DNA from: a virus
Lineage: Duplodnaviria; Heunggongvirae; Uroviricota; Caudoviricetes
Length of the DNA: 13,955 bases
IMG/VR virus record: IMGVR_UViG_3300012275_000032
Coordinates: 1 to 13,955 of that record
Strand: one strand, 5' to 3'
The notes beneath the pieces are model-generated. The model saw only the letters and a program-made list of their open reading frames with translations, had not been told where the DNA came from and did no database searches. The position numbers were made by a program, and so were the translations under genes. Numbering within the stretch: position 1 is the first letter of the stretch; each line of letters begins with the position of its first letter. Shown piece by piece: positions 3,780-11,895 of the stretch.

Positions 3780-4140
3780 CACATAACAGCTAAGTATTTT
3801 CAACCAGAGAGAATCCTTAGCGTTGTGGTGAATGCGGCTCAGCGCACGCGGGTTAAGGTTGAGGCTGACAGTCGACCTTCTGTGGATACCCACCCGCCTG
3901 GTGTGCAACCTTCGCCAGGCACCGGGAGGCACCCGGCACCACAACTTTATGCTGTGTGTAGTCCTGGTGGTACCAGTTTGTACCCTTGCTTCCGGCTGGT
4001 ACCGTCCTTTTTACAAAACAGAGAAGAGCATCACCGGACGACGGGCTCATAACCCAATCCATCCGGGCGGCTGCCACCGCAGGTGTTCTTCTCTGTTTTG
4101 TGGAGAAACCAACCGACCTTGCAGGGTCGATATGATGAGG
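3780..4140. other. GC-rich non-coding stretch with dense secondary-structure potential; candidate structured RNA or cis-acting site
   Basis: An 18-bp inverted repeat, 4013-4030 against 4084-4101 (17 Watson-Crick pairs plus one G-U), encloses 53 nt. Further stems: GCCTGG/CCAGGC (3896-3901/3915-3920), CCGGG/CCCGG (3922-3926/3932-3936), TGGTACCA palindrome around 3967-3974. All ORFs here look junk-like and overlap on both strands. Confidence 0.4.
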
Positions 4141-4149
4141 AGCAGCAAA

Positions 4150-4439
4150 ATGGCTAGCGAACGCAGTACTGATGTGCAGGCATTTATCGGGGAGCTGGAC
4201 GGCGGCGTATTTGAAACCAAAATCGGCGCAGTTCTCAGTGAAGTCGCTTCCGGTGTGATGAACACGAAAACCAAAGGGAAGGTCTCACTNNNNNNNNNNA
4301 AATTTCTGAAGAAGACACCACCGAAACGCCGATGTATGTCAATCGCGGTGGTCGCCTGACTATTCTGCAGGAAGACCAGGGACAATTACTGACTCTTGCC
4401 GGTGAACCTGACGGAAAACTCCGCGCAGCAGGTCATTAA
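4150..4439 (+). CDS. Hypothetical phage protein interrupted by an assembly gap
   Basis: GAGGAG 7 nt upstream of the ATG at 4150. Protein-like sequence MASERSTDVQAFIGELDGGVFETKIGAVLSEVASGV before the gap, and after the gap (in a different frame) ISEEDTTETPMYVNRGGRLTILQEDQGQLLTLAGEPDGKLRAAGH ending at TAA 4437-4439. Confidence 0.4.
4290..4299. other. Run of 10 N (assembly or masking gap) inside a coding region
   Basis: Literal n characters. The frame before and after differs, so the true gap length is not 10. Confidence 0.95.
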
Positions 4440-5329: not shown

Positions 5330-5456
5330 TTTCATTACTGCAAATGCCCCTGCGGGGGCATTTATGGAAACGTAATTAACTCAATAATCACCGGATGGTG
5401 AGGGCTTCATTTTACCAGAATTCAGCGTGGTGCAGCACATATACGTGGAGAACAAA

Positions 5457-5987
5457 ATGTCATTTATTAAAACTTTTTCCGGGAAGCATTTTTATTATGA
5501 CAGGATAAATAAAGACGACATCGTGATTAACGATATCGCGGTTTCCCTTTCAAATATCTGTCGCTTTGCAGGGCATCTTTCACACTTCTACAGCGTCGCC
5601 CAGCATGCGGTGCTTTGCAGCCAGTTGGTGCCGCAGGAATTGGCTTTTGAAGCGTTAATGCATGATGCAACAGAAGCTTAGGACATCCCCGCACCACTGA
5701 AACGCCTTCTTCCTGACTATAAACGGATGGAAGAAAAAATAGACGCCGTAATCCGTGAGAAATACGGGTTACCCCCAGTTATGAGTACGCCCGTGAAATA
5801 TGCCGATCTCATCATGCTGGCAACCGAACGCCGCGATCTCGGGCTTGATGATGGCTCTTTCTGGCCTGTACTGGAAGGCATCCCGGCAACAGAGATGTTC
5901 AACGTGATTCCACTGGCTCCAGGCCATGCCTACGGGATGTTTATGGAACGCTTTAACGAATTATCGGAGTTACGCAAATGCGCATAA
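5457..5987 (+). pseudogene. YfdR-like HD-domain phosphohydrolase (5'-deoxynucleotidase family) interrupted by an in-frame TAG
   Basis: ORF 5427/5457-5681 ends at TAG (5679-5681) directly after the HD motif (ALMHDATEA). The same frame continues DIPAPLKRLLPDYKRMEEK... into ORF 5727-5987. GGAGAA Shine-Dalgarno before the ATG at 5457. Total length about 176 codons, consistent with one gene. Confidence 0.6.
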
Positions 5988-6340
5988 ATGTTTTCGAAAT
6001 GGAAGGGTTTCTTCGCGGGAAATGTGTACCGCGAGATCTGAAAGTGAACGAAACAAATGCTGAGTACCTGGTACGTAAATTCGACGCGCTTGAAGCTAAA
6101 TGTGCGGCACTGGAAAGCAAAATAATACCAGTGTCAGCTGAACTGCCACCAGCAAATGAAAGTGTTCTGTTATTTGATGCTAACGGAGAAGGCTGGCTGA
6201 TTGGCTGGCGTTCTCTCTGGTACACCTGGGGACAAAAAGAAACCGGAGAATGGCAGTGGACATTTCAGGTCGGGGACCTTGAAAACGTCAATATCACTCA
6301 CTGGGCAGTAATGCCGAAAGCACCAGAGACTAAGAAATGA
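5978..6340 (+). CDS. YfdS-like hypothetical phage protein (120 aa)
   Basis: ORF overlapping the end of the YfdR-like gene by 10 nt. Length matches K-12 YfdS (120 aa) as recalled. Confidence 0.55.
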   Translation: MRINVFEMEGFLRGKCVPRDLKVNETNAEYLVRKFDALEAKCAALESKIIPVSAELPPANESVLLFDANGEGWLIGWRSLWYTWGQKETGEWQWTFQVGDLENVNITHWAVMPKAPETKK

Positions 6341-6525
6341 GCGTGATAAAAACTCATACAGGAATTGTTATCACCCGAGACGGTGAAAAGCGGATGAAAT
6401 TACATTCCACTGAAACGTCCTGGGTTGCCGGACGTTGTGAATCCTACGACAAAAAGACTGGTTACCGTTGGGGGGGGCACCTAACATGCGTCGCCGTCTG
6501 CTACTGGACAGCATCAGGCCAATAA
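6337..6525 (+). CDS. YfdT-like hypothetical protein, probably truncated or frameshifted (62 aa)
   Basis: ATGA overlap with the upstream stop. Contains a G8 homopolymer (6470-6477), after which the translation looks junk-like. Confidence 0.35.
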   Translation: MSVIKTHTGIVITRDGEKRMKLHSTETSWVAGRCESYDKKTGYRWGGHLTCVAVCYWTASGQ

Positions 6526-6613
6526 AACAGGTAGCAACCAGGGAACAAAATTAATTATCAGGACTGGAATTTGATATTACTGCCCGTGTGCAGCGGGCTA
6601 AGTGGAGAAACAT

Positions 6614-6820
6614 ATGCTGAACCTCGATTGTGTTCCAATCTCAACTTATTGCAAAGAAACTGGCGAAACTCCTGAAGCAATAAACAAACGTGTACAGCGC
6701 GGTGTTTGGCGTGAAGGTGTTCAGGTTTTAAAGGTTGAAGGCGTTAAGGAGAGGTGGATTGATCTTAGTGAGGTTGCAAAATGGGCCAGACAAAACTGCT
6801 CAAACTACCGCGCGGCGTAA
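6614..6820 (+). CDS. Excisionase-like protein (Xis), 68 aa from the ATG at 6614 (the ORF track begins at GTG 6602)
   Basis: Small basic protein immediately upstream of the integrase and overlapping it by 40 nt, the classic xis-int arrangement. GGAG (6604-6607) about 6 nt upstream of the ATG at 6614. Confidence 0.55.
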   Translation: MLNLDCVPISTYCKETGETPEAINKRVQRGVWREGVQVLKVEGVKERWIDLSEVAKWARQNCSNYRAA

Positions 6821-7977
6821 CAATCAGGAAACACCGCCAGGGCGAAACGATCAATATAACTTTCACCTACAAAGGAGTTAGATGTCGTGAGCCTCTTTCC
6901 AATCTGGAAGTAACACCAAAGAACATTAAATACGCCGAGCGCACACTCGGCGAAATTCATAATAAGATCGAAAGGGGAACATTCATTTATGCGGAATATT
7001 TTCCCCGTTCTGCTCGTTTGAAAATTTTTGGTAATGCTGCTGCAGGCAAAACGGTAAAAATGTACCTGGACGAATACCTTGAAATCTGCGAAACGAGAAA
7101 ACTTTCACCATCTACGATTGGTGGTTATAAAAAATGCCGTAGTGCGTTAGCCTCACTCCACATTTGCCCTGCAAGTGAATTAACACCAGCAATCCTGAAA
7201 GCGTGGATTCAAAGCCAAAAAACGACCTTAAAAACCATTCGCAACCAGTTATCTTTCCTGCGGTCAGCACTTGATGAAGCCGTAACCGATGGGGTACTTC
7301 AAATTAATCCCGTATCGTTAGTAACTGCTTCGCGCTACCAAAGTGATAAGTCAGAAGCAGAAAGCAGCTACGTGGTTGATCCGCTATCACCAGCAGAAGT
7401 TGATGCATTACTAGCAGCAGCCGGAAACAAACAATGGGAGAATCTGTTCCGGTTTGCTATACATACGGGCCTGCGTAGTTCTGAATTATGTGCCCTTCGA
7501 TGGCGTGATATCGACTTTGTTGGAAAAACTGCCCATGTCCAGAGCGCAAGTGTTGTCGGTGTTATCAAAGGAACAAAGACAAAAGCCGGTACTCGTAAAG
7601 TTGAACTGACAGAAGAGGCAATGTTGGCGCTGATAAACCAGAAGCCATTTACATTCATGAAGGATGCTACTGTCTTTGAAGATCCAAAGACCAATAAGCC
7701 TTGGGCAAGTGCTGATGCAATCAGGAAAAAAGCATGGGTGCCAACATTGCGAAAAGCAGGTATTCGTTACAGAAACCCATATCAAACCAGGCATACATTC
7801 GCCACCAGCCATATCAGCCGAGGAGCAAACCTGTTTTGGCTTGCAGCTCAAATGGGGCATAAAGGGCCGGAAATGCTTTTCAGGCATTATGGTTCGTATC
7901 TCGTAGACTATGATGGCAAGACAGCTTGTAAGGACCAAGTATCAAAAAATCCGGAGAACATGAAAATTGAGAAGTAA
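6781..7977 (+). CDS. Tyrosine site-specific integrase (lambda family, with N-terminal arm-binding domain), 398 aa
   Basis: N-terminus LPRGVTIRKH...FTYKGVRCREPL resembles the arm-binding (DUF3596-type) domain. Catalytic motifs present: TGLRSSEL (Arg), KTKAG (Lys), RHTFATSH (His-x-x-Arg), GH...FRHYGSY (His, Tyr). GAGG Shine-Dalgarno upstream. Confidence 0.9.
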   Translation: MGQTKLLKLPRGVTIRKHRQGETINITFTYKGVRCREPLSNLEVTPKNIKYAERTLGEIHNKIERGTFIYAEYFPRSARLKIFGNAAAGKTVKMYLDEYLEICETRKLSPSTIGGYKKCRSALASLHICPASELTPAILKAWIQSQKTTLKTIRNQLSFLRSALDEAVTDGVLQINPVSLVTASRYQSDKSEAESSYVVDPLSPAEVDALLAAAGNKQWENLFRFAIHTGLRSSELCALRWRDIDFVGKTAHVQSASVVGVIKGTKTKAGTRKVELTEEAMLALINQKPFTFMKDATVFEDPKTNKPWASADAIRKKAWVPTLRKAGIRYRNPYQTRHTFATSHISRGANLFWLAAQMGHKGPEMLFRHYGSYLVDYDGKTACKDQVSKNPENMKIEK

Positions 7978-8080
7978 AACGCCCGATAGCACTAGCCCCC
8001 CTTCGCAAAACAGTAAAGCTTACAAGAATGTTAGCAGGATGATGAGGATAGTGTACAATGGTTTTAGTGTGCATTAAATG

Positions 8081-8120
8081 CAAAGATTTGACGTTTTTTG
8101 TCAAATTTGTGCTATAAAAT
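8081..8120 (+). promoter_or_regulatory. Promoter with extended -10 and overlapping dyad symmetry, upstream of the defence gene pair
   Basis: TGcTATAAA extended -10 (8110-8118). TTGACG (8088-8093) is a -35-like hexamer at non-optimal spacing. Imperfect inverted repeat CAAAGATTTGAC-N7-GTCAAATTTGTG (8081-8111). AAGGG Shine-Dalgarno before the ATG at 8168. Confidence 0.45.
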
Positions 8121-8167
8121 CACTTTTAGTGGTTTTTAAGCTATGGGAAGTTAAAAGGGTATAAATT

Positions 8168-9433
8168 ATGTTGATTGAGTTTACAGTACAAAACTATAAA
8201 TCTATTTCAGAGAAACAAACACTGAGTTTAGTTGCATCAAAACTTAACGATTTGCCTAATAATCTGTTCAGTATTGATGAACCTAAATCTCTTGAATTGC
8301 TTAAAAGTGCTGTGATTTATGGCCCTAATGCTGCCGGAAAATCAAACATTATTAACGCTATTACAACTATGGCTGAACTTATTGTCCGGTCTGCTACAGG
8401 TTATAAAAGTGGTGATAAACTTGATATCACGCCTTTTAGACTAGACTCAAAGAAGATTAATCAACCATCTGAATTTGAAATTAACTTTATTTCCGAAGGC
8501 ATCAGATACCAGTATGGTTTTTCTGCAACAGAAGATTTTATTCACGACGAATGGTTATTTGCATTCCCCAAAGGCAGACCACAAAAATGGTTTTTACGTC
8601 TATGGGATGAAGAAAAACAAACCCATGAATGGGAGTTGGGGCCATCGTTGACAGGAGAAAAACAAACATGGTTGAAATCAACTAGGCCTAATGCGCTCTT
8701 TCTTTCTACAGCGGTACAATTAAACAGTGTACAACTAAAACCTGTATACGATTGGTTTTATTACAAAGTTAAATTTACTGAATTAACAGGTTGGGATAGT
8801 GATTACAGTGCAAAGCAATGCTTAAATGATAAGAAAGATGAGATTCTCAATTTTTTAAAAGCTGCCGATGTAGGTATTGATGACATTCATGTAACAAAAG
8901 AAAAATTCAATCCCAATGCTCTTCCTGATGATATGCCTGCAGCCATCAAGGAACTAGTGATTAAGAATATGCAAGGCAAGGAAGAATATGTCATTAAAAC
9001 ACTTCATAATAATGAGGATGGAGAGCCAATTCCATTCGATTTAAAAGATGAATCGCATGGAACTAGAAAAATCTTTAGTTTCGCGGGTCCCTTATCACAT
9101 TCACTCGAGACAGGAAACATCCTGTTTATTGATGAATTAAATGATAACTTACACCCCAAATTAGTTGAGTTTATTGTAGGTTTGTTTCACGATAAAAATA
9201 TCAATAAGAATGGTGCCCAGTTAATCTTTACAACTCATGAGACGTCTATTTTAAATCAAGATGTTTTCAGACGAGATCAGATTTGGTTTGTAGAAAAAGA
9301 CAATTCAAAGCAAACAAATCTTTTCCCACTTACGGATTTTAGTCCAAGAAAAGGAAGGGAGAATTTAGAAGCTTCTTATCTTGACGGTAGATATGGGGCT
9401 TTACCACTCATTGGGAAATGGGAGAGATATTAA
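8168..9433 (+). CDS. ABC/AAA_21-type ATPase of a two-gene defence module (AbiLi / AriA / OLD-N-terminal-like), 421 aa
   Basis: Walker A GPNAAGKS (nt 8321-8344), Walker B ILFIDELNDNLHP, H-loop-like IFTTHE. AT-rich codon usage. Stop TAA (9431-9433) overlaps the partner ATG. Confidence 0.85.
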   Translation: MLIEFTVQNYKSISEKQTLSLVASKLNDLPNNLFSIDEPKSLELLKSAVIYGPNAAGKSNIINAITTMAELIVRSATGYKSGDKLDITPFRLDSKKINQPSEFEINFISEGIRYQYGFSATEDFIHDEWLFAFPKGRPQKWFLRLWDEEKQTHEWELGPSLTGEKQTWLKSTRPNALFLSTAVQLNSVQLKPVYDWFYYKVKFTELTGWDSDYSAKQCLNDKKDEILNFLKAADVGIDDIHVTKEKFNPNALPDDMPAAIKELVIKNMQGKEEYVIKTLHNNEDGEPIPFDLKDESHGTRKIFSFAGPLSHSLETGNILFIDELNDNLHPKLVEFIVGLFHDKNINKNGAQLIFTTHETSILNQDVFRRDQIWFVEKDNSKQTNLFPLTDFSPRKGRENLEASYLDGRYGALPLIGKWERY

Positions 9434-10119
9434 TGGGAAGCGAAGATCTGTTCAAAAAAAGAAAGGCTCGGCGTAATAATGAATTCAAACGAGTTAGTAA
9501 AGCACGAGCTCAAATGAAGAAAATTCTTATCGTCTGTGAGGGAGAGAAGACTGAGCCCGCATATTTTACAGATTTTATAAAACATTGCCGTATAAGCACG
9601 GCAAGCATAGTTGAGATTTCTGGAGAGTGCGGCTCAAGCCCTATGAATGTGGTATCTTGGGCAAAAGAAAAATATAATACGGAAAAAAAAAGGAGCGACC
9701 CTTATGATAAGGTTTATTGTGTCTTTGATAGAGACGCTCACCCTAACTATGATGAAGCTCTTAGCAGGATTAATTCCTTAAATCCAAAAGGGATTTTTGT
9801 TGCTATAACTTCCATACCATGTTTCGAGTACTGGCTGATACTACATTTTGGATACACCCGAAAATCATTTTCACCTCAGAAAGGCAAAAGTGAAGGCGCA
9901 CAAATGCTAGCTGAGTTAAAAAAATACATGCCAGATTATGAGAAAAAGGCATCAGGTGTATTTAATAAATTGCAAGATCGGCTCGATACGGCATTAATCA
10001 ATGCTAAAAGAGTCGAAGATGCCGCCAAAAAAGACGGTTCGATAAATCCTTCAACTAAAGTTGGCGCTTTGATTACAGATCTAATTAACATTCGTGATGA
10101 CTTTGAAAATGAGAAGTAA
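9433..10119 (+). CDS. RloB-like / Toprim-like partner protein (AbiLii-like), 228 aa from the ATG at 9433 (the ORF track begins at 9418)
   Basis: TAATG stop-start overlap with the ATPase gene and GGGAG Shine-Dalgarno (9419-9425). Basic N-terminal tail, then ILIVCEGEKTEPAYF (Toprim Glu, nt about 9526-9570) and a downstream FDRDAH (DxD) motif, the RloB-family signature as recalled. Confidence 0.8.
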   Translation: MGSEDLFKKRKARRNNEFKRVSKARAQMKKILIVCEGEKTEPAYFTDFIKHCRISTASIVEISGECGSSPMNVVSWAKEKYNTEKKRSDPYDKVYCVFDRDAHPNYDEALSRINSLNPKGIFVAITSIPCFEYWLILHFGYTRKSFSPQKGKSEGAQMLAELKKYMPDYEKKASGVFNKLQDRLDTALINAKRVEDAAKKDGSINPSTKVGALITDLINIRDDFENEK

Positions 10120-10244
10120 AAATAACATGTCATGATGTAGCGACGGCAGCATGTTTAAGTTCAAATGGCAAAGTGTACGCGAAGTATACGCGGATCAAAA
10201 ACAATAGAAAAAACGTATATTTTACAAAAGATTATATAAATTTT

Positions 10245-10266
10245 GACGCGGGTTCAACTCCCGCCA
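10245..10266 (+). other. Partial copy of the tmRNA (ssrA) 3' end: prophage/island att core (attR-like boundary)
   Basis: GACGCGGGTTCAACTCCCGCCAGC matches the T-arm and 3' acceptor strand of E. coli tmRNA (recalled as ...GGACGCGGGTTCAACTCCCGCCAGCTCCACCA). It then diverges (CCCCAATCA), and no tmRNA body lies upstream. Confidence 0.7.
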
Positions 10267-10400
10267 GCCCCCAATCATGATTGGACGGTGTAAGGACTAC
10301 ACCAACAAAAACAGGAAGTTATAAGTCTCAGCAGGACACCGACCAGACGGTGAGGAGACAAAAAAGGATACGCAACGGAGTCGCGACTCCCTATGACATT

Positions 10401-10427
10401 AAAGCCCGCTGATGCGGGCTTTTTTAT
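10401..10427 (+). terminator. Intrinsic terminator about 140 bp downstream of the att copy
   Basis: Stem AGCCCGC (10403-10409), loop TGAT, stem GCGGGCT (10414-10420), followed by TTTTTTATT. Confidence 0.6.
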
Positions 10428-10856
10428 TGGTCCTGACCCGCCCTGAATAGAATTCATCCAATTACAGTCCAGACATATACAGTATCCCTCAGCTCAGTAT
10501 CAGCTTCTCGACAAATGGTCACTGTTATTTACCCGTTGCCAGAAAGAGAATAATTTGCCCCCATAGCCAGCCTTCCCGGAATCTGTATATTCATTAATAT
10601 TGTTATCGATTCCATCAAGTAACATAGGTTGGATGCGATTGATCTTACTCACATTAGTCGACACGGAACTCAGTAAGTTGAACTCTGAAAAAGCAGTTTA
10701 AATAGCATTTAAACAAATGCCACCAGTTCGAAAAAGAGTATAAGCACACTTAATATATTGTTTTAATTATTCATTTCCTTTCAACCCAATTCTTATCCCT
10801 CACATTATTTGTTATTAATTTGTTGTTTTTGATCACAATAAGAAAACAATATGTAA

Positions 10857-11895
<1,039 letters not shown>

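Follow-up and report, generated by a model that had tools for sequence, protein, structure and literature searches.

Positions 10245–10273 of the window, by which we mean the whole 13,955-nt stretch of viral DNA analyzed here, very probably form the attR core (P-O-B') left when a lambdoid prophage inserted in ssrA, the gene for tmRNA. The sequence is a standard displaced tmRNA-gene fragment and marks attR for a prophage family and an insertion hotspot that are both known; what is new is the combination of cargo and flank, together with a lesion allele of an already known type. An earlier note on this DNA, made from the letters alone, had reported an exact 22-nt match to the 3' end of tmRNA at 10245–10266, covering the T-arm and acceptor strand, and the match was confirmed. 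The 22-mer (GACGCGGGTTCAACTCCCGCCA, + strand) occurs once in the window even when up to three mismatches are allowed, was produced by 0 of 200 dinucleotide shuffles, and corresponds to nt 333–354 of the 363-nt E. coli ssrA (CFT073, Nissle 1917, EC1722-1 and LR-33). It was identical in every E. coli ssrA examined. Alignment to ssrA resolves the stretch as follows:

10245–10247, + strand: GAC
10248–10252, + strand: 5' half of the T-stem, GCGGG
10253–10259, + strand: T-loop, TTCAACT
10260–10264, + strand: 3' half of the T-stem, CCCGC (the whole T-arm being 10248–10264)
10265–10266, + strand: CA, opening the 3' acceptor strand
10245–10273, + strand: displaced ssrA 3' fragment and attR core, ssrA nt 333–363 minus T357 and A360, with the crossover bounded inside it

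The 22-mer has no natural right edge. Its match to ssrA stays exact to 10268 (24 nt, up to ssrA nt 356), past which T357 and A360 are deleted, and the CCA that ends the gene falls at 10273, giving 29 of 31 matching nucleotides in the same orientation as glaH. Position 10245 is the true left start of exact homology, with a vestigial AAATTT similarity reaching back to ~10238. The P-arm region (10120–10244) has 31% GC, the fragment 72% and the trailer 47%. The rest of the tmRNA gene had been described as missing, and this too was borne out: in the window ARAGORN called neither a tRNA nor a tmRNA gene, and the Rfam tmRNA model gave only a sub-threshold match ending at 10265 (23.4 bits versus a gathering score of 47), so that 10245–10273 is a gene fragment and the full gene is absent. 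The window has no functional tmRNA gene, which would comprise a whole tRNA-like domain, the pseudoknots and the reading frame for the tag.

To the right of the core, the window consists of the chromosomal flank that normally follows ssrA:

10274–10427, + strand: native 3' trailer of ssrA, orphaned by the insertion and identical to what follows ssrA in Nissle 1917
10377–10390, + strand: palindromic hairpin GGAGTCGCGACTCC, inside the native trailer
10401–10425, + strand: intrinsic terminator from a terminator scan (stem-loop 10401–10422, T-run to 10425)
10428–10955: chromosomal spacer between ssrA and glaH with the csiD promoter region, colinear with CFT073, JJ1886 and Nissle 1917 at ~98% identity
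10956–11933, + strand: glaH (csiD), its end nominal due to a gap, its frame broken only by the 10-N gap at 11687–11696

From 10245 onward, the window equals Nissle 1917 over ~225 aligned nucleotides except for two 1-nt deletions, whereas K-12 shares only the last ~200 nt of the 10428–10955 spacer. The junction had been placed about 690 bp upstream of csiD, in agreement with a glaH start 682 nt after the CCA, a distance that is the same in Nissle 1917. The order from core to glaH likewise matches smpB-ssrA-glaH; in Nissle 1917 the genes run recN-bamE-ratA-smpB-ssrA-glaH-lhgO, with no insert in the gap between ssrA and glaH. We rebuilt the empty site by joining the last 200 nt of ssrA to window positions 10274–10573 and searched for it in 5426 complete E. 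coli genomes. It was contiguous in 710 of them (100% coverage, 99.6% identity), including Nissle 1917, ATCC 25922, ABU 83972 and 536. The comparison with island-free strains that the earlier note had proposed thus gave a clear empty site. The note had also held that finding the 22-mer at this position in such strains would count against integration; this test is ill-posed, as the sequence is present there as the end of an intact ssrA, which is what the att model predicts.

The hairpin GGAGTCGCGACTCC of the native trailer reads GGAGCCGCGGCTCC in phage copies of the trailer and in the K-12-type trailer. The two forms differ by a compensatory double change (T>C and A>G) that preserves the palindrome, which suggests, from the pattern of substitution, that the palindrome is conserved as an RNA hairpin or as a site for protein binding. 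The orphaned terminator follows abiLii, in the same orientation, and may end prophage transcripts before glaH. A 253-aa open reading frame (10956–11717) gave the appearance of a glaH pseudogene truncated by a 38-nt deletion. This was ruled out: the 10-N scaffold gap at 11687–11696 stands for ~48 nt of reference and creates the false frame, and glaH is probably intact.

To the left of 10245, the window is foreign (phage) DNA, the early arm of a lambdoid prophage. Its genes include a Rha/Ash-type regulator; CII-like, Cro-like and CI-like regulators, the last with an HTH and an S24 peptidase domain; YfdQ (DUF2303) as part of a YfdQ/R/S content; and a DUF551 protein. The segment nearest the core carries recombination and cargo genes:

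6614–6820, + strand: xis, excisionase, 68 aa (PHROG phrog_2917, E 7.7e-44), its end overlapping the start of int
6781–7977, + strand: 398-aa tyrosine integrase whose N-terminus bears an arm-type DNA-binding domain, transcribed toward attR
8168–9433, + strand: abiLi, AAA ATPase, defence cargo (PADLOC AbiLi, E 4.2e-101; Pfam AAA_21)
9418–10119 (called gene 9433–10119), + strand: abiLii, RloB family, defence cargo (PADLOC AbiLii, E 3.2e-29; Pfam RloB, 1.1e-39)
10160–10244: P arm of attR, the phage side, from an alignment of four attR sites with different cargo

The integrase contains the Pfam domains Arm-DNA-bind_2 (1e-23), Phage_int_SAM_5 and Phage_integrase (4.7e-16) and aligns to the Tn1549 and lambda integrases, where the R, K, R, H and Y residues can be recognized and the catalytic tyrosine is aligned. 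A homologue of the 68-aa protein is annotated as xis in Citrobacter phage phiNP. The two-gene AbiL abortive-infection system sits between int and the core. With this content, the idea of an island boundary needs amending: the core does mark a junction, but the element that ends there is a prophage and not a generic island.

Within this prophage family, the interval from int to the P arm of attR (7978–10160 in the window) is a swap slot for accessory and defence genes. It holds AbiLi/AbiLii in EC1722-1, as in the window; an AAA ATPase and a PD-Lambda-5_B methylase in JJ1886 (segment 8586–11356); two unknown genes in CFT073 (segment 47317–48860); and an AAA ATPase in phiNP (segment 42059–44800).

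Near the left end of the window, a P1-type immI module lies on the minus strand (836–1037) inside an open reading frame at 245–1384 (379 aa, 'Ash + Rha'). It comprises a C4 antisense RNA (836–923, 83.6 bits), an isrK-like RNA (948–1024, 67.9 bits) and a weak match to the c4 a1/b1 target (985–1037). Because the Pfam Ash domain (aa 117–213) overlaps the C4 and isrK RNAs, the start of this reading frame is probably over-extended. The C4 match had raised the possibility of a P4-like satellite, which we rejected given the lambdoid content (CI, Cro, CII, Rha and YfdQRS) and the fit of the C4 and isrK matches to a P1-type immI module. A match to an STnc100-like sRNA at 3792–4014 (+ strand) scored 41.3 bits, under the gathering score of 47.

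These parts fit a simple route of integration. The phage attP has a copy of the ssrA 3' end along with the trailer and terminator behind it, and the tyrosine integrase (6781–7977) very probably recombined attP with ssrA inside nt 333–363. Phage DNA would then complete ssrA at the far (attL) end, and the original 3' end with its trailer and terminator would be displaced by ~40–48 kb to 10245–10427, 682 nt upstream of glaH. To excise, the prophage would require Xis (6614–6820) in addition to Int. The window belongs to a 14,189-bp contig (DAMCOD010000085.1, assembly GCA_032107365.1) that covers one end of the element, and both ends were observed in EC1722-1, CFT073 and phiNP; from these attL/attR pairs, we infer that the prophage in the window's own genome is complete and has ssrA at its other end.

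The anatomy of the att sites agrees with this route and changes one detail of the earlier description. Among four attR sites, P-arm conservation begins ~85 nt left of the core and the cargo beyond it is unrelated. The P arm contains two ACGCG units 11 nt apart (10177–10181 and 10188–10192, consensus mCGCr), and a conserved ATTAyAwAA block adjoins the core. A similar pair, ACGCA-N6-CCGCG, is present in the P' arm, where the motif ACGCAAAGGAGCCGCG resembles the mCGCr pair of the P arm; where CFT073 shows CGC in the two arms, phiNP shows CGT in the two. On these sequence grounds, the P and P' motifs are candidate arm-type sites for the N-terminal domain of Int. The P' arm of the phage is itself a ~90% identical copy of the ssrA trailer (~185 nt), hairpin and terminator included; at attL of EC1722-1, it reads AATCATGATTGGACGGTGTAAGGACAACACC...GGAGCCGCGGCTCC. 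Since attP copies the ssrA end and a further ~185 nt that take in trailer and terminator, the repeat common to attL and attR is ~215 nt long and imperfect. The core therefore does derive from integration at ssrA, as had been claimed, but the duplicated sequence is not the 22 nt given for it.

The exchange can be bounded from the relatives. In EC1722-1, the second att site (att2) and attL diverge directly after CCA+1, and homology begins at G333, which places the exchange for the EC1722-1/window phage type within nt 333–363(+1). Mismatches of the P arm in the 5' T-stem (GGACtCGGG in JJ1886, GGACaCGGG in CFT073 and GCtGG in phiNP) move the left bound for the family to ~nt 339, for a range of ~339–363. 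A T-loop flanked by inverted T-stem halves reportedly offers a natural 7-bp overlap with core-type sites. The exchange point is most likely the 7-nt T-loop between the inverted T-stem halves, a narrower placement than the bounds of nt 333–363 give by themselves.

The fragment also carries a two-base lesion. Compared to Nissle 1917, the gene end GCCAGCTCCACCA reads GCCAGC-CC-CCA in the window, with T357 and A360 absent; displaced ssrA fragments are often deleted right after CGCCAGC. Charging by AlaRS follows a G3-U identity rule: T357 supplies the U of G3-U, a pair that alanine charging depends on, and A360 is the discriminator base. If the lesion were transferred to ssrA, G3-C would replace G3-U and the 3' tail would be shortened, and the rebuilt gene product would be expected not to be chargeable by AlaRS. 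Deletion of U357 alone abolishes tagging, and excision of CP4-57 from K-12 puts its T357 deletion into ssrA, so that tagging is lost and ribosome rescue is switched to ArfA/RF2 (PMC10107115).

For the window prophage, the crossover bounds (nt 333–363(+1), or ~339–363 for the family) allow the 7-bp overlap to include positions 357–360 but not to lie wholly 3' of A360, so that excision would either transfer the lesion or meet heterology in the overlap. Excision would therefore probably disable ssrA or be blocked. With the crossover in the T-loop, the excision attB would read ...CCCGCCAGCCCCCAATCATG, a mutant ssrA. It is possible, if somewhat short of an even chance, that the fragment acts as a pre-set poison allele, in which precise excision switches off trans-translation as with CP4-57 and prophage loss is either penalized or serves as a rescue switch. 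Transfer of the lesion on excision would mean that the lysogen cannot lose its prophage without losing trans-translation. Were the poison-allele reading true, it would apply to an integrase family in which the reference, CFT073 Ecoc48X, keeps its fragment intact.

The lesion core is rare. Among 5426 complete E. coli genomes, only LR-33 has it, and none combines the lesion allele with the trailer of the window; exact-pattern scans for the allele returned zero matches in GTDB species representatives and zero in JGI metagenomes. In LR-33, the same double deletion (GCCAGCCCCCA; window 10263–10273, LR-33 segment 6019–6029) is found at attR of a P2-like remnant, before a K-12-type trailer and ypjA. 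At the equivalent position (segment ~2973–2986), K-12 has only the T357 deletion. Occurrence of the same double deletion in a complete genome argues against a sequencing error in the window, and the identical lesion stands on two different flanks, the glaH side in the window and the ypjA side in LR-33. Under the poison-allele reading, the LR-33 deletion, beside a different element, would be a sign that selection makes such alleles spread or recur.

Several other origins of the fragment were weighed against an attR core. One is that it is the scar of an earlier ssrA island, with the adjacent prophage degraded or using another site. The locus does accumulate such remains: tandem arrays with leftover ssrA fragments occur here (three copies in EC1722-1), both K-12 and LR-33 carry fragments before ypjA, and LR-33 has the very lesion allele beside a different element. 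A scar, however, does not sit easily with ~85 nt of P arm that abut the core and are conserved with relatives bounded by ssrA and the same core, with a xis–int pair that is intact and 2.3 kb from the core, or with an interval from cargo to core that is empty of other elements. We consider a scar very unlikely. That the tmRNA-like stretch arose by chance or convergence as a tRNA-like hairpin, or is an independent small RNA or tRNA-like element unrelated to integration, has a practically negligible probability. Its GC-rich (72%) hairpin and the terminator downstream could be transcribed, but the shuffles gave no match, ARAGORN calls no tRNA or tmRNA gene, and the sequence is colinear with the ssrA end and 682 nt of native flank, so that the empty-site comparison refutes this origin in practice.

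An assembly artefact would instead concern the junction, the P arm having been joined to the glaH-proximal trailer through the repeated core with intervening DNA, such as a satellite, skipped. The window is a scaffolded draft with 10-N runs at 4290–4299 and 11687–11696, and the exact junction, an AbiL-type P arm followed by the native trailer, is found in 0 of 5426 complete genomes. No complete genome in this set spans both sides (left and right matches overlap only at 10231–10281), none covers at least 80% of the whole window or of the junction query, and all those with the window P arm continue differently after the core. Nonetheless, the shared exact core of ~24–57 nt is shorter than usual assembly k-mers, which disfavors such a join; the resulting layout is that of CFT073 and JJ1886, and the lesion allele occurs independently in the complete genome of LR-33. 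An artefact is thus extremely unlikely. With the fragment read as an attR core, the prophage–chromosome junction is fixed to the base, with the phage side ending at 10244 and the ssrA tail, trailer and terminator occupying 10245–10427, and the native region upstream of glaH/csiD is retained.

A closely related prophage in EC1722-1 has the same int, AbiL cargo and P arm and is 98.7% identical over window positions 5346–10281. It extends from an intact ssrA to ...AAATTTTGACGCGGGTTCAACTCCCGCCAGCTCCACCA ~40.6 kb away, so that the matching core which the earlier note had expected at the other end of the element is indeed found in relatives, CFT073 being alike over 48.4 kb. The EC1722-1 locus (segment 12846–24800) is a tandem array at ssrA in which the lambdoid prophage and core are followed by a P4-like satellite, a degenerate core and an autotransporter gene. 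The satellite has its own int, an nSTAND1 NTPase, psu, delta, sid and a primase, and the third, degenerate core reads ACTCCGCCAGC-----CAATCATG.

CFT073 carries Ecoc48X, listed as an ssrA-adjacent prophage in Table 1 of PMC10107115, and its 48.4-kb span fits that entry; data of Williams 2003 ('Traffic at the tmRNA gene') are used here as tabulated in PMC10107115. Ecoc48X shares with the window the ssrA target, the lambdoid genes, the order of xis, int, cargo and attR, and a core that leads into the same trailer and glaH, and its integrase has 96% nucleotide identity to that of the window. The CFT073 sequence runs from ssrA through the complete lambdoid prophage to GGACaCGGGTTCAACTCCCGCCAGCTCCACCA, the trailer and glaH. 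It differs in cargo (two unknown genes on the minus strand versus AbiL), in its P arm (GGACaCGGG) and in its displaced fragment, which is intact (CGCCAGCTCCACCA), whereas that of the window is without T357 and A360.

The attR of CP4-57 in K-12 (pseudogene psaA, b4645) resembles the window in that the far end of the element carries a displaced 3' piece of ssrA without T357. Unlike the window prophage, CP4-57 is cryptic and P4-like, and a P4-type integrase adjoins ssrA; its fragment starts only within the T-arm (ACTCCGCCAGC), lies before ypjA and not glaH, and has a single deletion compared to the double deletion of the window. Citrobacter phage phiNP (OR565852), deposited core to core, is like the window in its xis–int pair (83% nucleotide identity), cargo after int, P-arm motif, P' copy of the trailer and ssrA core, here a 25-nt repeat (GGTTCAACTCCCGCCAGCTCCACCA), but differs in host genus and cargo and has an intact core.

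In a wider frame, the window is a worked example of a displaced tmRNA-gene fragment that delimits a prophage, a principle already used by Islander. In that class, the gene for a tRNA or tmRNA is split by a tyrosine integrase and made whole again by island DNA, and the regenerated target and displaced fragment mark the island ends (PMC4383910). The window shows no essential difference from the Islander class of displaced tDNA fragments and is one instance of it.
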